Assembly (NCBI GenBank): GCA_964291215.2
Contig: OZ219791.1
Location: 1,312,001 to 1,376,000 of the forward strand
DNA length: 64,000 nucleotides
Direction: 5' to 3'
DNA from: Alphaproteobacteria bacterium
GTDB lineage: Bacteria > Pseudomonadota > Alphaproteobacteria > MPNO01 > UBA830
Part shown: positions 6,776-60,432 of the stretch, piece after piece
Numbering within the stretch: position 1 is the first letter of the stretch
Layout: the number at the start of each line of letters is the position of its first letter
Made by a program: the position numbers and the translations under genes
The notes under the pieces: generated by a model
Told to the model about the DNA's origin: nothing
What the model saw: only the letters and a program-made list of their open reading frames with translations
Databases searched by the model: none

Positions 6776-8038
6776 ATGTCCTGTCCCCGTGTGGAAGGTT
6801 TGGGGCAGGATAGAACTCCGGAGCGTGGTCTTTCAACCTGACACTGTTAACTCGCACGGTGATCCCACGCCAAGTTTGTTGGAAGGGTCGGTTTCGCTTG
6901 TTCAGGATGATTCGCATTTTCGCTGACTTTTTGTGAAGCGGCGCAGTATCCGTTGTCGTGATGGAAGGGGCAGCGGATTTTTTTGAGACGACTCTGGAGG
7001 GTTTTGCGCTCCGGGATGTAGTTGTGCGCCTTGCGTGGCCTGATGTCGCTGGAATCGTGCGGTTGACGGTATCCTGGTTTCAAGCAGTTTGCCGGTCGAG
7101 GTCTGCGCTACGTGTTCACCTGGCGCGGGCAGTGGATTGGCGCTGCGGGCTGGCAGACGGGCGCCCTCGGCTGCGCACCGCGGGACCGTTGGATTGGCTG
7201 GCGCCGCGAGGAACAGTTCAGGCGGTTGCCGGGAACAACACGAGGTTTGTTGTTCTTGGTGGTCGCCGGGTGCTGCCGGGCCTTGCCTCGTTTGCGTTGT
7301 CGCGGATGGTGCGGTGGCGACCGGGAGGCTGCCGTTGCTTGTTGCGGAGTCGTTTGTCTCGCCGACGAAGTTCAGCGGCACCATGTACAAGGTGGCGAAC
7401 CGGGAGGGCGTTGGCAGGAGCTATGCGCGCGCCAACGGGCGCCGACCGGCACAGGGAGGCGAAGGATCTTTACGTGTTTCCGCTGCGTCGTGACGTCGGC
7501 TGCGGGACCGTTCGTCGCGGGTGCAGTTCTCGTATGGCGAATCCAATTCATTGATTTAACACGGTTGTGCGGTCGCGAGGCAGCGGCGAAAACGGGTTTT
7601 CGTGACAATCGCCCGTTTCGGGACAGGATTTTGTCACGACCCCCGCGGCATCGACAGGGTGATCCGGGCGCTGCGCCATCTTCGCGACACCGCGGCGCCA
7701 ACGGGCCGACATCGACAGGGAACCGGCCTTTTTCCGCAAGCATCGCCACCGCATGCGCTACCACGCGCTGAAGCAACCGGCTCGGGAATTGTCGAGGCGG
7801 CGTATCTACTCACCCCTAGTTGGGTTCTGATTCATAGTGCTCGTTGATGATGTCTGCGGCTTTTCCGTCGAGGGCGATCTGGGTGGCGACGAGTGGGTTG
7901 TAGCCGAGTGCGGCCATGGAGGTGAGGTAGCTTGAGCTCCGGCACCATGCTTTTGCGTGGAGCGGAAGCATCCGGACACCTTGACCTTTGCCATCCTGAT
8001 CTTCTGTTCTCCGGCATTGTTGGTGAAGCTGACATTGG

Positions 8039-9681
8039 GTGCGCCAGGCTAACTGGTGGAATGTTGCCGGGTGCAAGTCCCGGCAGGAAGAGAGGCTAAC
8101 CACCACTTTCTCCGTGAACCATGCGTCGTGAGGCGTCAGGCGAAGCGTTGGGGAACGGCAGGCCGGGCTATTGAGCCACGAGATGCTTTGAAACCGGAGT
8201 GCCGAGGTCGTGGCCGAAGGCAACGAGCCGCGTTGGTGAGGGGGGCTCCGCGGGGTCCGAGAACCATGGCCGAAGCAGGGACCTGGGAGGTCTTTCAATC
8301 GCCCCTCTGTCGTGGAGGGGCCGCAGAGGAAAGGAACTATTCCATAAACCGATGATGAACGAGAAGTCAGATCCGGCCATAGTACCGTTGAAGGCGGCGA
8401 ACAAGGGTTCTTCGGAGCCTGCGGAGTTGCTGGAGGGAAGGGCAATGCGGTTGGCCCGCGCCGCGCGCAGAAGCGGGGGTCACAGGCGGCTGAACGCAGG
8501 TAGCGAAGAGGAACCCGGAAGAGCGTCTTTACTCCACCACGTGACGGTCGACGCTCTGCACGATGCGTTCCATTCCTTGAGGAAGGACGCGGCGGCGGGG
8601 CGTTGTGTGGCAAGCGTATGCGGAGGGTGTGGAACTGCCTGCACGCCCGTGTGCACAGGGGCGGGCGCCTCCGGGGTTTACATACCCAAGGAGGATGGAG
8701 GGCAACGACCGCTTGCCTCGGACAAGATTCTTCAGCGGGCGGTGTGATTCTGGTGCCGCGAGACGGAGTTCCTCGGGTTTAGTTACGGTTTCCGGCCGGG
8801 GCGCATCACGCGCTCGACGCCGTCACGGTGGAACGGCGGAAGGTCAACTGGATCGTTGACGCCCGCGGGTTCTTCGACAATCTCGACCGCGACCACCTGA
8901 TTGCGATGCTCGGGAAACGGATCGGGGGGTTATCCGGCTGATCATCAAGTGGCTGAACGCCGGCGTCATGGAAGGGACCGACTGGTCGGATACGGGCAAG
9001 GGAACACCGCAGGGGGCGATTGTATCGCCCTGCCTCGCGAACGTTTACCTGCACTACGTGCGACTGGTTCCAGAACCACTGGCGCAAGCGGATGGCTGGA
9101 GGCGACACGATCATTATGCGGACGACTTCGTGTGCGGCTTTCAGCATCTGGGCGATGCGCAGCGCTTTCTCCGGGACCTTGGGGAGAGGCTGGCCCACTT
9201 GAACTGCACCCGGACAATCATCGAGTTCGGTCGGTTTGCCAGAGCGAACCGCCGGAAGCAGGGCAAGACATTCGACTTCCTCGGCATGACGCACTTCTGC
9301 GAACAGACGAGGAAAGGCAGGTTCAGGGTCGGTCGCAAACCGTCTCGCAAACGGGCACCCTGCGGCGGATCAAGGGGGCCTTGCGCATGCGATGGCACGA
9401 CAACCGGCACGAAACGGCCAAGTGGTGAGTCATCAACGGCTGCTACTACGCCGTCCCGGGAAGCAGTCAATCCCTGCAGGGGTTCATACACCAATGCAAA
9501 CGGCTGCGTGCCCTTCGGCGACGCTCCCAAAAGGACTTCACCGGGGACATAGACACCCTCGCCGCTGCCCACTGAGCCAGCATCCGCCACCCGTGGCCAA
9601 ACCAGCGCCTTGTCGTCAGGGGAGGAGCGAACAGCGCACGTCCGGTTCTGTGCGGGGGGTAACCCGGTTCCCTACCGCAAT
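8039..9681 (+). mobile_element. Group II intron copy 1 (RT pseudogene)
   Basis: 5' GTGCG; 3' DV/DVI-like ..GCACGTCCGGTTCTGTGCGGGGGG..CCCTACCGCAAT; RT fragments YIPKEDG, FSYGFRPGR, GTPQGA, YADD, FDFLG; frameshifted. Confidence 0.93.
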
Positions 9682-11324
9682 GTGCGCCAGGCAAACTGGT
9701 GGAATGTTGCCGGGTGCAAGTCCCGAGAGAGGCTAACCACCACTTTCTCCGTGAACCATGCGTCGTGAGGCGTCAGGCGAAGCGTTGGGGAGCGGCAGGC
9801 TGGGCTATTGAGCCACGAGATGCTTTGAAACCGGAGTGCCGAGGTCGTCCAAGTGGGCAACACCCCGCGAGCCGCGTTGGTGAGGGGGGCTCCGCGGGGT
9901 CCGAGAACCATGGCCGAAGCAGGGACCTGGGAGGTCTTGCCCCTCTGTCGTGGAGGGGCCGCAGAGGAAAGGAACTATTCCATAAACCGATGATGAACGA
10001 GAAGTCAGATCCGGCCATAGTACCGTTGAAGGCGGCGAACAAGGGTTCTTCGGAGCCTGCGGAGTTGCTGGAGGGAAGGGCAATGCGGTTGGCCCGCGCC
10101 GCGCGCAGAAGCGGGGGTCACAGGCGGCTGAACGCAGGTAGCGAAGAGGAACCCGGAAGAGCGTCTTTACTCCACCACGTGACGGTCGACGCTCTGCACG
10201 ATGCGTTCCATTCCTTGAGGAAGGACGCGGCGGCGGGGCGTTGTGTGGCAAGCGTATGCGGAGGGTGTGGAACTGCCTGCACGCCCGTGTGCACAGGGGT
10301 GCGTACCGGGCGCCTCCAGGGTTTACATACCCAAGGAGGATGGAGGGCAACGACCGCTTGCCTCGGACAAGATTCTTCAGCGGGCAGTGTGATTCTGGTG
10401 CCGCTCTACGAAACGGAGTTCCTCGGGTTTAGTTACGGTTTCCGGCCGGGGCGCATCACGCGCTCGACGCCGTCACGGTGGAACGGCGGAAGGTCAACTG
10501 GATCGTTGACGCCCGCGGGTTCTTCGACAATCTCGACCGCGACCACCTGATTGCGATGCTCGGGAAACGGATCGGGGGGTCTGATCATCAAGTGGCTAAA
10601 CGCCGGCGTCATGGAAGGGACCGACTGGTCGGATACGGGCAAGGGAACACCGCAGGGGGCGATTGTATCGCCCTGCCTCGCGAACGTTTACCTGCACTAC
10701 GTGCGACTGGGTCCAGAACCACTGGCGCAAGCGGATGGCTGGAGGCGACACGATCATTATGCGGACGACTTCGTGTGCGGCTTTCAGCATCTGGGCGATG
10801 CGCAGCGCTTTCTCCGGGACCTTGGGGAGAGGCTGGCCCACTTGAACTGCACCCGGACAATCATCGAGTTCGGTCGGTTTGCCAGAGCGAACCGCCGGAA
10901 GCAGGGCAAGACGTTCGACTTCCTCGGCATGACGCACTTCTGCGAACAGACGAGGAAAGGCAGGTTCAGGGTCGGTCGCAAACCGTCTCGCAAACGGGCA
11001 CCCTGCGGCGGATCAAGGGGGCCTTGCGCATGCGATGGCACGACAACCGGCACGAAACGGCCAAGTGGTGAGTCATCAACGGCTGCTACTACGCCGTCCC
11101 GGGAAGCAGTCAATCCCTGCAGGGGTTCATACACCAATGCAAACGGCTGCGTGCCCTTCGGCGACGCTCCCAAAAGGACTTCACCGGGGACATAGACACC
11201 CTCGCCGCTGCCCACTGAGCCAGCATCCGCCACCCGTGGCCAAACCAGCGCCTTGTCGTCAGGGGAGGAGCGAACAGCGCACGTCCGGTTCTGTGCGGGG
11301 GGTAACCCGGTTCCCTACCGCAAT
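9682..11324 (+). mobile_element. Group II intron copy 2 (RT pseudogene)
   Basis: Directly abuts copy 1 (CGCAAT|GTGCGCC); same RT motifs, frameshifted. Confidence 0.93.
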
Positions 11325-12961
11325 GTGCGCCAGGCAAACTGGTGGAATGTTGCCGGGTGCAAGTCCCGAGAGAGGCTAACCACCACTTTCTCCGTGAACC
11401 ATGCGTCGTGAGGCGCCAGGCGAAGCGTTGGGGAGCGGCAGGCCAGGCTATTGAGCCACGAGATGCTTTGAAACCGGAGTGCCGAGGTCGTCCAAGTGGG
11501 CAACACCCCGCGAGCCGCGTTGGTGAGGGGGGCTCCGCGGGGTCCGAGAACCATGGCCGAAGCAGGGACCTGGGAGGTCTTGCCCCTCTGTCGTGGAGGG
11601 GCCGCAGAGGAAAGGAACTATTCCATAAACCGATGATGAACGAGAAGTCAGATCCGGCCATAGTACCGTTGAAGGCGGCGAACAAAGGTTCTCCGGAGCC
11701 TGCGGAGTTGCTGGAGGGAAGGGCAATGCGGTTGGCCCGCGCCGCGCGCAGAAGCGGGGGTCACAGGCGGCTGAACGCAGGTAGCGAAGAGGAACCCGGA
11801 AGAGCGTCTTTACTCCACCACGTGACGGTCGACGCTCTGCACGACGCGTTCCATTCCTTGAGGAAGGACGCGGCGGCGGGGCGTTGTGTGGCAAGCATAC
11901 GCGGAAGGGGTGGAACTGGTTGATCTACACGCCCGTGTGCACAGGGGTGCGTACCGGGCGCCTCCAGGGTTTACATTCCCAAGGAGGATGGAGGGCAACG
12001 ACCGCTTGCCTCGGACAAGATTCTTCAGCGGGCAGTGTGATTCTGGTGCCGCTCTACGAAACGGAGTTCCTCGGTTTCAGCTACGGTTTCCGGCCGGGAC
12101 GCATCATGCGCTCGACGCCGTCACGGTGGAACGGCGGAAGGTCAACTGGATCGTTGACGCCCGCGGGTTCTTTGACAATCTCGACCGCGACCACCTGATT
12201 GCGATGCTCGGGAAACGGATCGGGGGGTTATCCGGCTGATCATCAAGTGGCTGAACGCCGGCGTCATGGAAGGGACCGACTGGCAAGGGAACACCGCAGG
12301 GGGCGATTGTATCGCCCTGCCTCGCGAACGTTTACCTGCACTACGTGCGACTGGGTCCAGAACCACTGGCGCAAGCGGATGGCTGGAGGCGACACGATCA
12401 TTATGCGGACGACTTCGTGTGCGGCTTTCAGCATCTGAGCGACGCGCAGCGCTTTCTCCGGGACCTTGGGGAGAGGCTGGCCCACTTGAACTGCACCCGG
12501 ACAATCATCGAGTTCGGTCGGTTTGCCAGAGCGAACCGCCGGAAGCAGGGCAAGACGTTCGACTTCCTCGGCATGACGCACTTCTGCGAACAGACGAGGA
12601 AAGGCAGGTTCAGGGTCGGTCGCAAACCGTCTCGCAAACGGGCACCCTGCGGCGGATCAAGGGGGCCTTGCGCATGCGATGGCACGACAACCGGCACGAA
12701 ACGGCCAAGTGGTGAGTCATCAACGGCTGCTACTACGCCGTCCCGGGAAGCAGTCAATCCCTGCAGGGGTTCATACACCAATGCAAACGGCTGCGTGCCC
12801 TTCGGCGACGCTCCCAAAAGGACTTCACCGGGGACATAGACACCCTCACCGCTGCCCACTGAGCCAGCATCCGTGGCCAAACCAGCGCCTTGTCGTCAGG
12901 GGAGGAGCGAACAGCGCACGTCCGGTTCTGTGCGGGGGGTAACCCGGTTCCCTACCGCAAT
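11325..12961 (+). mobile_element. Group II intron copy 3 (RT pseudogene)
   Basis: Directly abuts copy 2; ends CGCAAT and IS66 sequence resumes with GGTCGTCTGTGAAGC. Confidence 0.93.
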
Positions 12962-15086
12962 GGTCGTCTGTGAAGCGCAGGTTTTCGTGTTTCACGAGAC
13001 GTTCGTGCAGGTTGTGCGCGCCGGACTTGCGTCCACGTTTTCCTTTCGGCGGGATATCGGGCAGTTCCCTGGCGCCCTGATGGTGCGGTAGCGCTTGCGC
13101 CCGGCGTCGTTCAGGGTTTTGGATGCGCTCTTGTTGACCTTGTGGCAGGGAGCAGGCTCTTCATCAGTCGCGCGGTAGCCTCGACGACAAAGGTCAGTTC
13201 GCGCAGCAGGTGGCTGCCGCTGGTGGCTACACTGGCCCATGTACGAGGCCCAGGACGCCCTTGTAACACGGGATGATGCCGATCTCTTGCCCGCGCTTGC
13301 GGTGCGGGAACTTGCACGTCAGGGTCCCACGACATGGAGCCACTTACTGTTGATCCGAAATCGTCGACATCGGGCGTTGCAGGAGGTGCGCCACGGCGGC
13401 CTCCTCCCATGACGCATCGTGAAAGCATAGCCGAGGCCTCGGAGAGCTTGATATCGCCTGCACGAGCGCGACGGCGCAGGGACAGCATTTGGGCGACCAG
13501 CAGGTTGATGACGAGGGCCTGGATGCCGATGCCGTAATGCACGGGATGTTGTCGGGGAACCGGCCCCGGGCCTTGCACTTCGGACATTCCTTGATCTCGG
13601 CGCGGCGCTCGACGACCTCGAACACGATGTCGTGCGGCGCTCCCGATCGACGGGGCCGTCGATGTCGGCGCCGCAGGCCGCGACCGTTTCCTCGACGATG
13701 GTCTTGCGCAGGTTGTCGCCCATCTGCCGGTTCGGCTTCGGGCCGTTGCTCCCGGCACGCTCTCGTCCTTGTCCGTCTGTGACGGCGGCAGACCGGAGTT
13801 CCGGCTCGTGCGTAGTCTTCTCCAGAAGGACGACGATGATGATGTCGAGCAGGATGACGAGGACGCGGATCACGGCCTCTTTCGGCACCTTGCCGGCAGC
13901 GCCGCGGTCTTGGCCGCTTCGAACTCCTCGCGCGCCGCGTTGACCGTCGCCATCACCCGGTCTTGCGCTTCATCAGCGCGCCGCCTCCGAGATGCGTTTC
14001 CACATACAGATCATGCGGGGGCTGGAGCCTCGGAAGCAGCTGGCACAGCCCGCTCGTCGCCTTCGATCCAAAGTAGCCCACTGGCGGTCCCCTCGATTAC
14101 CACCACTAAACGAATCGGCCTGCAGTGTCAAATCTCCACGAAAACCCGTTCATTGCTCTACCCCGACATCAAGCCGGAACCAGGGGGTGAGCAGTTACGA
14201 GGCGGCAAATAAGACCCTCGTCACACAGCGCATGAAACGCTCTGGCATGCGCTGGCGCATCGTCGGCGGACAATCACCTTCCGCGCCCTGCTCGAAGCCA
14301 GCCGCTTCGAGAGCGCGTGGACGGCCATGATCGGTGCAGACGACGCACCAGCCAACGACAACATCAGCCCAAATCACACCCCGGCACTGGCCGTACGAGA
14401 TGAACAAATGGTACTGAGCCTGCAACTGTGCCATACGAAACTCTCACCCTTCGCCGCTTCCTGTGGCGTGGGAGTTGCGGGCGCCGCTGGTCGCGCAGGA
14501 GTTGTGCTCGATTTATCAGCGGCGCTTTCCGGCGCGCGCAGGGGCATCGCCTCGGTACTGTGCGTGATGGCGCGGCTTGCGAACCGGCGCGGCGGCGCAC
14601 TACGACGCAGAAGGAGCTGGAGCAGCATGGAAGAACAGGGACAAGCCGGTCTCGACCGTGCACCGGGTGCTGCAGAACACCGACCCGGGATGGATCGAGG
14701 ATGCGGCGCGCAGCCGCAGGTCGGCAACGCGGTCGACGGCAAGCGCACCGGCGAGGATCATTACGAGACAGTCTCGCTGGCCGGTATTCGATCCTCAACT
14801 ATCACGACGGGGAGATCGCTGCCGTCCACGCCGCGACGGCGCTGGCCGTCTGCTCACCCTCGACGCGCTCCACACCACCCGCGAGGCTGATCATCGAGAC
14901 CCATCGCGCGGACTGATGGTCAAGGGCAACGCACCTTCGAGAGAGCATCAACTGGAAGACCGCCAGCGCTACAACGAAAAGCCCGCGCATGGCCGCCAGC
15001 GCATCATCTTCACCCCGCTGGCGAAGATGATCAACTATGTCAAGCAGATCTTCCGCGTCACCCGGCACGTCGAATTCAGGAAATCC

Positions 15087-43107: not shown

Positions 43108-43379
43108 AACTCGGGTTGCCTTTAGTTCTCGCTTCAGCTGCTTCGCCTTTCGGCGAACCGCCTTCACCTCCGCACGGGTCGCCTTGAGATGGTGTTCCAG
43201 CGCCTCCGCTCGGATTCGCCTCGTAAAGCGCATGCCAGTCAGGCTCCTCGCAGGGCCCAGACAGCAGACACTGGCCCTCTCCCATCAGCGGCCGTGCCGC
43301 CCCGTGTGTCTCCTCGAAAGGCTCCATGGCCTCGACAATAGATGAGGCCAATTTTTTCCTAATTCCCACTCAAACTAAG

Positions 43380-44577
43380 CCCCCGTTCCATAGTGAAGTG
43401 CAACACATGATGGGCTGTGGCCATGTGTTTTTAGACGCATGATGTTGCGGAGCTGTCCAGCAGCGGCGAGAGTTCCTGTACAAGATGGAGGGAGCTTGTT
43501 CATGTCCAAAGGCTACCGTCACCTACGAAGAGCGATGCCAGATTGAGGCAGAAAAGCGGTCTTTCACAAGGTGCGATTGCTCGGCAGCTGGGCCGATCAA
43601 CAATTTTCCGGGAAATCAAACGCAACACCGGGGGATGGGGTTACCGTCACAAGCAGGCGCAAAGGATGGCAGAAACGCAGGGCCGCCTCGTCTGTTTCCT
43701 GGCGGTTGACGCCTCGGGTTGAAGCTCAGAAAAAGCTGCGGGAGGGCCCTGAGCAGATCAGCGGCCGTTTTCGACTGGAGGGTCGTGGGTCGGCAACGGA
43801 TCTATGATCGCATTCATGAAGATCGGAGAGCTGGGGGCGCCTTGTGGAAGAAGCTTCGGCGGCGCGGCAAGAAGCCGAACTGGAAGGGCGGATGCCATTC
43901 CGGCCGGGTGGACATTTCCGAGCGCCCTGCGGTCGTTGAGGCAAAGGAACGGATCGGCGACTGGGAGCCATCATCGGCAAAGCTCACAGTGGAGCTGTCG
44001 TGTCGCTCGTGCCACGAAATACACCTTGCTGGGTGGACAGAAAGACACGGTTGGTATGATCCGCCTGCTCGGCTCTGGTGCGCTATTGGTCCACACAATC
44101 ACAACGGCAAGGAGTTCGCAGACCACAGGCGTGTCGCACTTGACGCAGATTTCTTCTTCGCCTTTCCATTCTTGGGAGCGCGGCTTGAATGAGCACACCA
44201 ATGGCCTGGTGCGGGAGTACTTCCCGAAGGGCGCGGACTTTCGCGCGACATGCAACGAAGATGTTCAGAAGGTGCGGCTCAACACTCGGAAAGTCCTGGG
44301 ATCGCCGACGGAGGTAATCTTGAAGTGAAACCGCCCTGACCATCTGCGTTCCGCAGCCGCAACGTGCAGCAGGGTCCATGCCGCGCGACGGGGAAATAGT
44401 GGCTTGAAGCCGACAAAGGCGTTGCATAAGCTTGATGTTGAAGGAACTGAAGCTGTTCCCAGGCGGAATCGAGAGGGGCAGAGGGGAAAAATTTGCGCAA
44501 CCCGGCCCTCATCTCCGTTCGGGCTACGCCCTCACTGCGATGAGGGCCGGGTGTTGCACTTCAGACTGGAAGTGGGG
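43380..44577 (+). mobile_element. IS30-family element copy B (degenerate)
   Basis: Same IRs and frameshifted transposase as copy A. Confidence 0.92.
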
Positions 44578-45420
44578 AACGTATCTTGGGCAGCCTTTCC
44601 GGCATTGGCGGGGTTCTGAGCGCGATAACCTCGGGATGAGGTCGGGCAGACCGAAACGACGACGTTATTCGAACTCAGCCAGATAGCGCTGCGCATACTT
44701 GGGGCGAACCGCATGATTAGGTGCCACGCGCTCTTGACGTTGCCGAGAAGCGCGTTGACCCATCGAAACTCGGAATACTCGACGGCGGCTCGCCCGCTGC
44801 CGACCACGACCTTGGCGTGAGCGCAGCCGGCTGCGCTCACGCCGTTGAAGTACGTCAGGCCGTCAGACACGACTCGCGCCCAGGCGGCGATTTCGGTGCG
44901 CCGGAAGCCCTTGACGACGGTGAGCTTCACCCGTTGAGGGTGTCCAGCCTCTCGACGGCGGCGACGAACGGTGCCTTGCGCCCCCCGACCGCGCCACCGC
45001 TGCGCTCGCCGCAGGCGTCCGACCCATCCGGTGAGTGGGTGGGGGCACCCCATCATCACCTGCATCAGCTTGTGGCGCATGCGGCGTTGTAGGAGATGTC
45101 CAGATGACGGTGCAGCCTCATCGCCGAGATGCCCTTCTTGTCCTGGGTCATGAAGTAGATTCCGAGGAACCACACCGTCAAAGGCAGCTTGGTAGCCTCG
45201 AAGATGGTGCCCGCGGTAATCGAGGTCTGGCGATGGCACTGCTGGAGCTTGCGGGTGGTCAGTTAGCAGGCGCGGTCATTGGCCGCAATGCGGGCACACG
45301 AAGCCGTTCGGTCACCGCCAGCGATACAGGGCGTCGAAGCACTGGTCTTCGGTGCCGTAGCGGGAGAGGAACTGGTTGAGGCTGATGTCTCTCTGGAACT
45401 GTACTAGGTCGCGCACCATG
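44578..45420 (-). mobile_element. IS1595-family transposase remnant
   Basis: VQFQRDISLNQFLSRYGTEDQCFDALYRWR, FVCPHC, VVSDGL, FRWVNALLGNVKS. Confidence 0.8.
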
Positions 45421-45451
45421 AAAACATTCATATTTTCCAATAAATTACTTT

Positions 45452-46928
45452 GTAACTGCTCACCCCTTGGTTCCGGCTTGATGTCGGAGTAGAGCAACGA
45501 ACGGGTTTTCGTGGAGATTTGACACTGCAGGCCGATTCGTTTAGTGGTGGTAATCGAGAACGACGGGGACCGCCAGTGGGCTACTTTGGATCGAAGGCGA
45601 CGAGCGGGCTGTGCCAGCTGCTTCCGGGGCTCCGCATGATCTGTATGTGGAAACGCATCTCGGAGGCGGCGCGCTGATGAAGCGCAAGGCCGGGCGGTGG
45701 AGTACCGGAAGATGCCGCCGGGCGAGCGCCAGGCGATGCTCGCGGCGACCGTCGAGGCCGGGTGATGGCGACGGGCGGCGCGCGAGGAGTTCGAAGCGGC
45801 CAGGACCGCGGCGCTGCCGGCAAGGTGCCGAAAGAGGCCGTGATCCGCGTCCTCCTGCTCGACATCCTCATCGTCGTCCTTCTGGAGAAGACCACGCACG
45901 AGCCGGAACTCCGGTCTGCCGCCGTCACAGACGGACAAGAGCGTGCCGGGAGCAACGGCCCGAAGCCGAACCGGCAGATGGGCGACTACCTGCGCAAGAC
46001 CATCGTCGAGGAGACGGTCGCCGTCGATCGGGAGCGCCGCACGACATCGTGTTCGAGGTCGTCGAGCGCCGCGTCGACGCCGAGGAATGCCCGAAGTGCA
46101 AGGGCCGGTTCCCCGACAACATCCCGTGCAGTACGGCATCCAGGCCCTCGTCATCAACCTGCTGGTTGCCCAGATGCTGTCCCTGCGCCGTCGCGCTCGT
46201 GCAGGCGATCTCCGGCATCAAACTCTCCGAGGCCTCGGCTATGCTTTCACGATGCGTCATGGGAGGAGGCCGCCGTGGCGCACCTCCTGCAACGCCCGAT
46301 GTCGACGATTCCGAATCAACGGTAAGTGGCTCCATGTCGTCGGGACGTGCAAGTTCCCGCACCGCAAGCAAGAGATCGGCCCGTGCTACAAGGGCGTCCT
46401 GGGCCTCGTACATGGCAGTGTAGCCACCAGTTGTGCGGCAGCCACCTGCTGCGCGAACTGACCTTTGTCGTCGAGGCTACCGCGCGACTGATGAAGAGCC
46501 TGCTCCGCGAGGTCTGCCACAAGGTCAACAAGAGCGCATCCAGGACCCTGAACGAGGCCGTGCGCTACCGCACCATCAGGGCGCCAAGGAACTGCTCGAC
46601 ATCCCGACGAAAGGAAAACGCATCGCAAACGCGCACAACCTGCACGAACGTCTCGTGAAACACGAAAACCTGCGCTTCACAGACGACCCCGACGTCAGCT
46701 TCACCAACAATGCCGGAGAACAGAAGATCAGGATGGCAAAGGTCAAGGTGTCCGGATGCTTCCGCTCCACGCAAAAGCATGGTGCCGGGGCTCAAGCTAC
46801 CTCACCTCCATGGCCGCACTCGGCTACAATCATCACGTCGCCACCCAGATCGCCCTCGACGGAAAAGCCGCAGACATCATCAACGAGCACTACGACTAAT
46901 CAGAACCCAACTAGGGGTGAGTAGATAC
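45452..46928 (+). mobile_element. IS66-family element (uninterrupted, degenerate)
   Basis: GTAACTGCTCACCCC ... GGGGTGAGTAGATAC; CGSHLLREL, FTNNAGEQKIR; shows the empty intron site. Confidence 0.92.
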
Positions 46929-56845: not shown

Positions 56846-56911
56846 ACTCGATCCCTGAGCGTCTTCACGCAAATTGCTGATGCCTTTCTCACGCAATTTG
56901 ATGGATATTTG

Positions 56912-57648
56912 GTAACTGCTCACCCCCTGGTTCCGGCTTGATGTCGGGGTAGAGCAACGAACGGGTTTTCGTGGAGATTTGACACTGCATGCCGATTCGC
57001 TTAGTGGTGGTAATCGAGAACGACGGGGCCCGCCAGTGGGCTACTTTGGATCGAAGGCGACGAGCGGGCTGTGCCAGCTGCTTCCGGGGCTCCAGCCCCC
57101 GCATGATCTGTATGTGGAAACGCATCTCGGAAGCGGCGCGCTGATGAAGCGCAAGGCCGGGTGATGGCGACGGGCGGCGCGCGAGGAGTTCGAAGCGGCC
57201 AAGACCGCGGCGCTGCGTGCGGCCGGCAAGGTGGCGGAAGAGGCCGTGATCCGCGTCCTCGTCATCCTGCTCGACATCATCATCGTCGTCCTTCTGGAGA
57301 AGACCACGCACGAGCCGGAACTCCGGTCTGCCGCCGTCACAGACGGACGAGAGCGTGCCGGGAGCAACGGCCCGAAGCCGAACCGGCAGATGGGCGACAA
57401 CCTGCGCAAGATCATCGTCGAGGAGACGGTCGCGGCCTGCGACGCCTGCGGCGCCGACATCGACGGCCCCGTCGATCGGGAGCGCCGCACGACATCGTGT
57501 TCGAGGTCGTCGAGCGCCGCGCCGAGATCAAGGAATGCCCGAAGTGCAAGGCCCGGGGCCGATTTCCCGACAACATCCCGTGCAGTACGGCATCGGCATC
57601 CAGGCCCTCGTTATCAACCTGCTGGTCGCCCAGATGCTGTCCCTGCGC
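56912..57648 (+). mobile_element. IS66-family element, 5' half, truncated by IS256
   Basis: Starts GTAACTGCTCACCCC, colinear with the 45452 and 58782 copies. Confidence 0.9.
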
Positions 57649-60432
57649 GATTACGCAACCTGATGTCTGGAAATTGTCGTGAAGCTGTCAGTCATCGAGC
57701 TGTTCCCATTTGATCTTGGTTTCGGTTTCCCATTTTTCGTCGATGAGGACCGCGGTTGAGAGGCGCTCCAACGAGGCGAGGTTTGGAAAGACCCTGACTT
57801 TGGAGGTGCGCCGCTTGAGCTCTTGCTGGATCGGTCGCTCGATGCCGTTTGAGGTTCGCATACGCTTGTGGTGAGCATCGGGCAAGGTGAAGACAGCGAG
57901 CCCCGCATTGTTTTCCAGCCAGGAAGCCTGGATGCTTGTCGCGATAGCTGGCCACGAGGGTGCCCAGTTCAGCCTCGGCGGTTTGGAGTAAGGACGCATG
58001 GCTCTGAGCTGTTTTCCAATACGTTTCCTGATGTCGTTGTTCGGTGCACGGCGTTTTGTGCCAGGTGGAATTGGCAGCGCTGCCATGTCGCCGCGCCCAG
58101 CACCGCGCGTCGTGCTGCTTTCAGCCCGGCATCCGAGACGATGAAGGTCGTACCATGCAGGGCTAGCAAGCTTTCCAGGAAGGCTCTCCAATGGACCTCG
58201 GCCTCGGAGAGCGCCACAGAGAGCCCCAGAACGTGCCTGCAGCCCCTATTCCGATGGCCGAGAGCACTGCAACATCGCGCACAACGCCGTCATGGCGGGC
58301 TTTTTCGTAGCGCGCATCCAGGATCAGGTATTTCATCAGGGGCCGGTTGCGCGGCGAGTTCTTCATCGAGCAACCTGGTGGCCCGGCTGACCTGAGAAGA
58401 GGACAGGCTCCCGAACTCGCGCATTACATCTTGCCGAGTGGAAACACCCTTGATGTACAATCTCGGCTACGGCCACGGCGCGAGAAGATCGCTGGCCGCG
58501 TTCAAGCGACTGGGGATAGAACGGGTCGTCCCCGTGACCGGCCGTCTTTGGTACCTGAACGGTAACAGTGGGGGTGTCGATCCGTTTGTAGCCGTTGGCA
58601 TAGCCCTGTCGTTCCGGTGTCCGGTGGCCCGCTTTCAAGTGCTGCTCGCGCTCGATTTGCATCGCAAGCTCGAAGAGCTGACCAAAGACCCGCCCCAGAT
58701 CCGTTGCTCCGTTTGCGATCAGATGTTCCAAAACGGCCTCAATCGTCGTAGTGTGTCGCAGGTCCATTCGCTTCCTCCATGGTAACTGCTCACCCCCTGG
58801 TTCCGGCTTGATGTCGGGGTAGAGTAACGAACGGGTTTACGTGGAGATTTGACACTGCAGGCAGATTCGTTTAGTGGTGGTAATCGAGAACGACGGGGAC
58901 CACCAGGCTACTTTGGATCGAAGGCGACGAGCGGGCTGTGCCAGCTGCTTCCGGGGCTCCAGCCCCCGCATGATCTGTATGTGGAAACGCATCTCGGAAG
59001 CGGCGCGCTGATGAAGCGCAAGGCCGGGTGATGGCGACGGGCGGCGCGCGAGGAGTTCGAAGCGGCCAAGACCCGGATCGCGGCGCTGCGTGCGGCCGGC
59101 AAGGTGGCGGAAGAGGCCGTGATCCGCGTCTTCGTCATCCTGCTCGACATCCTCATCGTCGTCCTTCTGGAGAAGACCACGCACGAGCCGGAACTCCGGT
59201 CTGCCGCCGTCACAGACGGACAAGGACGAGAGCGTGCCGGGAGCAACGGCCCGAAGCCGAACCGGCAGATGGGCGACAACCTGCGCAAGATCATCGTCGA
59301 GGAAACGGTCGTGGCCTGCGACGCCTGCGGCGCTGTGACATCGACGGCCCCGTCGATCGGGAGCGCCGCACGACATCGTGTTCGAGGTCGTCGAGCGCCG
59401 CGCCGAGGAATGCCCGAAGTGCAAGGCCCGGTTCCCCGACAACATCCCGTGCAGTACGGCATCCAGGCCCTCGTCATCAACCTGCTGGTCGCCCAGATTC
59501 TGTCCCTGCGCCGTGCTGTCGCGCTCGTGCAGGCGATCTCCGGCATCAAGCTCTCCGAGGCAACCTGCCTCGGCTATGCTTTCACGATGCGTCATGGGAG
59601 GAGGCCGCCGTGGCGCACCTCCTGCAACGCCCGATGTCGACGATTTCGGATCAACGGCAAGTGGCTTCATGTCGTGGGACCCTGACGTGCAAGTTCCCGC
59701 ACCGCAAGCGCGGCCGGGAGGCAAGAGATCGGCCCGTGCTACAAGGGCGTCCTGGGCCTCGTACATGGGCCAGTGTAGCCACCAGCTGTGCGGCAGCCAC
59801 CTGCTGCGCGAACTGACCTTTGTCGTCGAGGCTACCGCGCGACTGATGAAGAGCCTGCTCCGCGAGATCTGCCACAAGGTCAACAAGAGCGCATCCAAAA
59901 CCCTGAACGACGCCGGGCGCAAGCGCTACCGCACCATCAGGGCGCCAGGGAACTGCCCGACATCCCGACGAAAGGAAAACGTGGACGCAAGTCCGACGCG
60001 CACAACCTGCACGAACGTCTCGTGAAACACGAAAACCTGCGCTTCATAGACAACCCCGACGTCAGCTTCACCAACAATGCCGGAGAACAGAAGATCAGGA
60101 TGGCAAAGGTCAAGGTGTCTGGATGCTTCCGCTCCACGCAAAAGCATGGTGCCGGGGCTCAAGCTACCTCACCTCCATGGCCGCACTCGGCTACAACCCA
60201 CTCGTCGCCACCCAGATCGCCCTCGACGGAAAAGCCGCAGACATCATCAACGAGCACTACGACCAATCAGAACCCAACTAGGGGTGAGTAGATACCCTCC
60301 ATGAATGTTTACAGCTCCATGGGATAGCACGATGGCGCCGCGTTTCACTGGGGAGCTAGCCCCCCCCCCCCCAGTGAAACGCCTCAAAGCGCAAACCTCA
60401 GACAAATTTCCAGACATCAAGTTACAGTACCG
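57649..60432 (-). mobile_element. IS256-family element (degenerate) interrupted by IS66
   Basis: IRs containing TGATGTCTGGAAATT; GYANGYK, YLILDARYEK, WQRCQFHL, RTSNGIER..ELKRRT..VFPN; outer limits approximate. Confidence 0.85.
58782..60295 (+). mobile_element. IS66-family element (both ends, degenerate)
   Basis: Both ends present; exact 8-bp target duplication CCTCCATG (58774-58781, 60296-60303). Confidence 0.93.

Follow-up and report, generated by a model that had tools for sequence, protein, structure and literature searches.

Three decayed group II introns joined head to tail at one homing site of an IS66-like repeat

Tandem integration of a group II intron was shown experimentally in 2025 for EcKTE56.groEL, where, according to the consulted sections of the report (PMC12584367), a second copy integrates by using the first G of the resident intron as intron-binding site 3 (IBS3). 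Here we describe three copies of one group II intron that lie head to tail at a single site of a decayed IS66-like insertion sequence (IS) in the genome of an alphaproteobacterium (assembly GCA_964291215.2). The stretch analyzed, hereafter the window, comprises 64,000 nucleotides (nt) of contig OZ219791.1 (G000:C2:1312001-1376000) within a genome of 6.15 Mb in two contigs, C1 and C2. A literature search outside the subscription journals returned a single experimental account of tandem integration and nothing on head-to-tail stacks in nature; the array is likely a natural instance of this recently demonstrated mechanism.

The layout of the array resembles that of the EcKTE56.groEL tandems as the same sections portray them: a newcomer would sit between the unchanged 5' exon and the resident, the first G of the resident would act as IBS3, and the junction is exact. 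A minority of occupied sites is stacked in both cases (4.2-22.4% of integrants there, 6 loci against 42 occupied sites here; PMC12584367). The two systems differ in exon-binding site 3 (EBS3), which is U and forms a U-G wobble in EcKTE56.groEL, whereas it is C and forms a canonical pair here, and in their setting, with a plasmid-driven assay and the groEL stop codon as target on one side and a natural genome with a decayed IS66-like target on the other. The present intron moreover lies antisense to the transposase, reaches up to three copies, all of them dead, and belongs to a different intron class, the Rfam D1D4-6 type.

Introns that target insertion sequences offer a second comparison. RmInt1, which resides in ISRm2011-2, has, like the intact relatives of the present intron, a reverse transcriptase (RT) without an endonuclease domain, and it prefers the lagging-strand template. 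With RmInt1 the present intron shares its confinement to one position of a multicopy IS, partial occupancy of that position and later decay. The same traits link it to E.c.I4, which targets transposases of the IS3 family, but head-to-tail stacks like those found here are not described in the consulted parts of the E.c.I4 accounts (PMC3522654). The scale is also larger here than among such IS-targeting introns, with 115-118 empty and 42 occupied sites. Twintrons, nested group II introns (Pfreundt and Hess 2015), likewise bring several introns of one family together at one locus, and this genome also has true nested cases; in a twintron, however, one intron lies inside another, whereas complete units abut at the exon boundary here. 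Circularly permuted group II introns, as presented in the consulted part of their description (PMC8637638), show the domain order V-VI then I-IV that is also read across each internal junction of the array; unlike them, the array is built of complete units with no exon between the splice sites, and it carries catalytic lesions.

Structure of the array and recognition of its target

The array and the two arms of its host element are laid out as follows.

7815..8038 (-), left arm of the decayed IS66-like host element, the 5' exon, from blastn of the empty element against the window; IBS1 TTGG at 8035-8038
8025-8029, candidate IBS2 GAAGC, weak and assigned by eye
8039..9681 (+), intron copy 1, 1643 nt; EBS1 hexamer deleted between 8211 and 8212; EBS3 C8258; domain V remnant 9625-9648
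9681..9682 (+), head-to-tail junction 1, CGCAAT/GTGCGCC
9682..11324 (+), intron copy 2, 1643 nt; EBS1 CCAAGT at 9849-9854, 7 nt of its stem deleted; EBS3 C9902; domain V remnant 11268-11291
11324..11325 (+), head-to-tail junction 2, CGCAAT/GTGCGCC
11325..12961 (+), intron copy 3, 1637 nt, more diverged than copies 1 and 2; EBS1 CCAAGT at 11492-11497; EBS3 C11545; domain V remnant 12905-12928
12962..14198 (-), right arm of the IS66-like host element, the 3' exon, from the same blastn comparison; G12962 is IBS3

An earlier note on this DNA had described three introns fused exactly at one site, with neither spacer nor target duplication. Intron ends, a MAFFT alignment, Rfam matches and comparison with an empty site confirm that description, and the array is a real feature. 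The three units (copy number as assembled) follow one another on the plus strand with zero spacer; each begins with GTGCGCC (8039, 9682 and 11325) and finishes with CCCTACCGCAAT (9681, 11324 and 12961), so the conserved group II ends, 5' GUGYG and 3' AY, are present in all three as a GTGCG start and a ..CGCAAT finish. The flanks (..GCTGACATTGG/../GGTCGTCTG) rejoin to the sequence of the empty site at 46684-46705 on the minus strand (GCTGACGTCGG/GGTCGTCTG) without target duplication. From the DNA alone the intron boundary is ambiguous by one G, which the GUGYG...AY consensus settles. The copies share 98% mean column identity, each is set apart from the other two by substitutions and by indels of 5-11 nt, and about 46 sites or indel blocks distinguish them. 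Matches to RF02005 (group-II-D1D4-6) at 8074-8265, 9717-9909 and 11360-11552 score 91.5, 82.1 and 81.6 bits against an Rfam gathering score of 49, which supports the RNA structure of domains I-IV in all three copies. Tandem Repeats Finder, whose longest period is 500, gave no report on the array.

Alignment with relatives that occupy other targets places exon-binding site 1 (EBS1) in a hairpin loop of domain I. The stem of this hairpin shows compensatory changes, and in five lineages the loop is the complement of the final 4-6 bases of the exon (CCAA:TTGG, CCACC:GGTGG, CCTTGA:TCAAGG, CAGATT:AGTCTG and TACGAT:ATCGTA). For the family found in the array, EBS1 CCAA pairs with exon TTGG; within the genome, copies reading CCAAGT stand at TTGG sites, while two of the three CCGAGT copies stand at TCGG and the third at TTGG. 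A scan for EBS3 singled out one of 376 alignment columns as Watson-Crick complementary to the +1 base in 10/10 sequences. That column covers seven lineages and three pair types (C-G, U-A and G-C), and none of 139 label permutations of the scan yielded any fully pairing column. EBS3 is C in each array copy. G stands at +1 of the empty site and again at the start of the intron, so an occupied site stays a complete target. Pairing of EBS1 with the exon end and of EBS3 with the +1 G was thus found by covariation, and the proposal in the earlier note that an occupied site remains valid for homing is borne out; the failure of pairing that, according to the note, would have left DNA-level duplication alone is not observed.

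A subfamily that begins with GAGCGCC and shares 82% identity is found at G000:C2:331141, 757592, 3116394 and 3330823, at non-IS sites ending in GGTGG. Its EBS1 is CCACC and its EBS3 is U, with A at +1; its specificity has therefore been retargeted.

With copy 1 as blastn query, 116 high-scoring segment pairs were retrieved genome-wide, and our filter on these yielded 49 full-length copies, most of which lie at the same position of an IS66-like repeat of ~1.5 kb; the empty and occupied sites of this repeat were counted by regular expression. The exact junction CGC[AG]AT/GTG[CT]GCC occurs eight times at six loci, all on C2, and a reversed control pattern returned 0 occurrences in the genome. The array is therefore not unique, as a search for its junction, suggested earlier, makes clear. 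All exon-intron junctions and 8/8 intron-intron junctions are exact and free of added bases. The suggestion that relatives be searched for the junction and for an intact intron had a divided outcome: the junction pattern is absent from the 60 relatives' genomes searched, while intact introns do occur in relatives known from long-read metagenome-assembled genomes (MAGs). The pattern is also present in three JGI metagenome contigs (L118, L119 and L120) that carry more distant group II introns; in L119 a second intron 3' end follows ~1.95 kb further downstream, which fits a complete tandem unit.

Formation of the stack

The three dead introns were most likely stacked singly, by retrohoming into a site that was already occupied (probability roughly 0.68). 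After one insertion, the 5' exon and the first G of the resident would still form a complete target, and no downstream cleavage site would be needed, because the RT of intact relatives has no endonuclease domain. A further intron RNA could then reverse-splice between the exon and the resident copy, and each newcomer would sit 5' of the resident. The insertions would have occurred at replication forks, given that occupied sites are biased to one orientation with respect to GC skew. Later decay by deletions of 5-7 nt, together with exchange with ~50 other copies, would have spread the same lesions through the family.

The arrangement by which tandem integration is recognized, introns joined exactly from 3' end to 5' end behind an unchanged 5' exon, is seen in the array. 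Further evidence comes from a sister array at C2:153803-157105, the 5' copy of which belongs to one lineage at 49/49 informative substitution sites and the 3' copy to another at 46/49. A whole intron of one lineage thus lies directly upstream of one from another lineage, which excludes local duplication at that locus. The three copies of the window array are not each other's nearest relatives either: copy 2 differs by 0.2-0.3% substitutions from three copies at other loci, versus 0.9% from copy 1 and 1.4% from copy 3. In 7/8 adjacent pairs, two of them marginal, the 3' neighbor is more diverged from the least-decayed copy.

Occupancy bears on how the introns arrived. All of C1 and the part of C2 below 0.6 Mb have negative GC skew, and beyond that point C2 has positive skew. 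The contigs thus resemble the two replichores of one chromosome, with the origin near C2:0.58 Mb. With strands assigned by this skew, 35/73 sites are occupied where the intron-sense strand is leading and 7/87 where it is lagging (odds ratio 10.5, Fisher p = 8e-9), and 6/6 arrays have the favored orientation. On a tree of IS flanks (158 elements, 40 occupied), occupancy requires 32 changes, against a mean of 35.6 after shuffling (range 30-40); the power of this tree is limited by its shortness and by sequence exchange among the copies. The orientation bias and the scattered occupancy on the tree point to insertion in place at replication forks. Fork-associated insertion is expected for a group II RT without an endonuclease domain. 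Transposition of IS and intron as one composite was considered as the means by which dead copies spread, and was rejected because of the strand bias and because occupied elements are spread almost at random over the tree of IS flanks.

Amplification at the DNA level, in which one or two copies homed and unequal crossing-over or replication slippage added the rest before homogenization, is an unlikely source of the array, even though unequal exchange is easy once two copies exist and the family clearly shows active exchange among its members. It could draw on the 5' end of copy 2, which carries copy-3-like markers at positions 12 and 45, and on the domain V and VI lesions common to all three copies. 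Copy 2, however, is no simple hybrid with 5' sequence from copy 3 and 3' sequence from copy 1, since the site patterns interleave over the whole length; the three copies are not mutual nearest relatives, and other arrays join whole copies from different lineages. Nor can the first precise junction arise by unequal crossing-over or slippage. The alternatives offered in the earlier note, that the lesions were homogenized within the array or that the array was amplified as DNA, are accordingly disfavored by the kinship of the copies and by lineage blocks that have been exchanged genome-wide.

Quite unlikely is a single event, in which an end-to-end template switch by the RT or the copying of an RNA circle produced a dimeric or trimeric cDNA that integrated at once, or, as a variant, a DNA circle recombined into a resident copy. 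A head-to-tail junction is what such an event would be expected to leave, and according to the consulted parts of two reports, group II RTs switch templates end to end (PMC8363836) and multimeric cDNA arises from circular RNA templates (PMC8637638). Rolling-circle copies would, however, be identical at the start, whereas the array members differ by lineage, and all exon-intron junctions and the eight intron-intron junctions are exact. Circle recombination predicts reciprocal chimeras, and the sister array, with its 49/49 and 46/49 assignments, has none; circle integration, which had been put forward earlier as giving the same junction, is thus not favored.

Decay of the family and the weight of its lesions

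The array copies are decayed members of a bacterial RT-encoding group II intron family, since their RT survives only in fragments while relatives keep intact RVT_1 and GIIM domains. In the array the RT is broken into frameshifted pieces (RVT_1 at 28.6, 28.1 and 34.6 bits), whereas the intact relatives in long-read MAGs encode proteins of 493-559 aa with RVT_1 and GIIM and no nuclease domain. A deletion of 7 nt in the 5' strand of domain V affects 3/3 array copies and 33/49 family copies, and one of 7 nt in domain VI affects 3/3 and 35/49. None of the three array copies gives an RF00029 match; the 31-nt form of domain V common to intact relatives is kept in 16/49 copies. In the domain VI remnant (CCCTACCGCAAT) the candidate branch-point A is kept and 7 nt of the stem are deleted, with pairing judged by eye. 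Copies 2 and 3 both lack 7 nt of the EBS1 stem and keep the hexamer. The least-decayed copy in the genome scores 137.3 bits with RF02005.

Lesions shared by all three copies had been presented as a puzzle of the array. They are real, but the puzzle was misframed, as solo copies have the domain V and VI lesions and the RT frameshifts too, and all of these are family-wide. Within the genome, the three array copies have no private indels and 0-3 private substitutions each, and substitutions and indels switch together in lineage blocks (copy 1 at 174-185 and 623-724, copy 3 at 367-603). Such block switching suggests genome-wide exchange rather than homogenization within the array or its amplification, and exchange between many copies after insertion, that is, gene conversion, is the simplest reading of the shared lesions. 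Shared descent among copies mobilized in trans may account for the lesions of the open reading frame (ORF).

Several observations weigh against stacking by retrohoming. The most serious is that ribozyme lesions lie beyond the reach of mobilization in trans, which is the main weakness of the model: if the lesions are older than the insertions, the copies cannot have entered by reverse splicing. Both the domain V and the domain VI deletions are present in 31/49 copies, and the EBS1 hexamer is missing from 37/49. No active copy is left in this genome, nor is there an intact RT anywhere in it; the best frame, of 386 aa in C2:3402931-3404765 (1835 nt), is still frameshifted, with about ten small deletions relative to intact relatives. 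Target pairing is short, EBS1-IBS1 amounting to only 4 bp at the array target, and for EBS2 there is a single weak 5-bp candidate found by eye (GCUUU with GAAGC), the covariation of which is inconsistent across lineages. The order test fails for copy 1 versus copy 2 (6 versus 1 mismatches), and private substitutions as few as those above give no insertion order and are uninformative for dating. Mosaicism blurs the history, and unequal crossing-over could have added one copy in the array. The partition by GC skew that assigns the strands is coarse. In the distant tandem of contig L118, the aligned EBS3 column may read G, which is unable to pair with G, although the homology of this column is uncertain and its placement in L118 and L119 is not confident.

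The same lesions could be read in another way, namely that ribozyme-dead introns kept spreading and that many insertions happened after the shared EBS1, domain V and domain VI lesions had arisen. Defective copies would then have reached new IS sites without catalysis of their own, for example if cDNA made in trans were annealed at the replication fork. Both the strand bias and the scarcity of private variants would follow; we nevertheless regard this reading as very unlikely.

Expansion of one intron copy into three by the assembler is highly improbable: the read data, short contigs from three runs of one study that contain 0.29-0.51 of sampled words and include no piece spanning the array, leave room for it, but the copies differ at about 46 sites or indel blocks, so that three distinct sequences exist, the same junction recurs at five other loci, and contigs from runs X1 and X2 cross the junction with 26+26 letters (the longest pieces across 9681/9682, below a 31+31 rule; one other locus has this junction sequence too, and the source sample may be what these runs represent).

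Small deletions in this genome have a common and unusual size spectrum. Gap events peak sharply at 5-7 nt in the intron (42/67 distinct events), in the IS66-like repeat (20/42) and in a third repeat of 1.2 kb at about window 43355-44555 (12/21), and in these three repeat families there are no events of 4 nt and few of 8-10 nt. Errors specific to the RT were rejected as the source of the small deletions, as the IS part and the third repeat family share the spectrum. Microhomology of at least 2 nt accompanies 16/43 deletion events (37%) versus 18% in a random control, weak support for strong microhomology as a driver. Mismatch repair acts on loops no longer than about 4 nt, which may be a reason for the spectrum.

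Host repeat, nested introns and biological meaning

Apart from the interrupted element, the window holds two empty copies of the host repeat.

45396..46915 (-), empty copy of the IS66-like element; target site between 46689 and 46688, target sense on the minus strand, in lagging orientation
58782..60282 (-), further empty IS66-like element; target motif at 60051-60072

The IS66-like repeat has expanded massively; in the window it is represented at 7815-14198, 45396-46915, 58782-60282 and 56908-57648, and the genome contains about 160-190 copies of ~1.5 kb, in none of which an intact transposase frame is found. Alongside it the genome has a few intact transposases from other IS66 subfamilies. 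The label IS66 in the earlier note is right in kind, but the host element is only a decayed remnant of ~1.5 kb, and its empty window copy falls just under the Pfam cut-off, with 20.2 bits for PF03050 (DDE_Tnp_IS66) on the plus-strand ORF 46433-46924 against a threshold of 23.1. Other copies of the same repeat exceed the cut-off, among them one at C1:408449-408961, which reaches 67.6 bits and covers the empty site at 408524.

A second, ORF-less group II intron of ~850 nt (GTGCAGCG...CCTACCCGAC) is present in about 10-12 copies. Several copies of the main intron carry it at position ~128, which makes them twintrons; these lie outside the window (G000:C2:152828-153674, 126934-128651, 1641438-1642254 and others), and a form of 1718 nt appears to be nested again. 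Relatives L039 and L040 have a related insert in a comparable position. At G000:C1:1651029-1656879 one copy of the main intron apparently lies inside another, at position 395/396, and inserts of ~1.85 kb are found at positions ~370-395 in relatives L031, L032, L041, L042 and L065-L072. In relatives L036-L038 and L064 the introns are preceded by a sequence that, judged by eye, looks like a tRNA T-arm and acceptor end (..GGGTCGAGTCCGG..GGGGCA..). The window itself has a tRNA gene at 83-155 on the plus strand (RF00005, 72.5 bits).

If the three introns were stacked by repeated retrohoming, the array documents, in a natural genome, the return of a group II intron to a homing site that it already occupied, an event otherwise known, in the literature found, from a laboratory assay only. 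For annotators, exact intron multimers need not be assembly errors. The re-homing route would work with a canonical C-G pair between EBS3 and IBS3, reach three copies and have recurred at six loci in one genome. A rule follows from the model: stacks should form only where EBS3 can pair with G.

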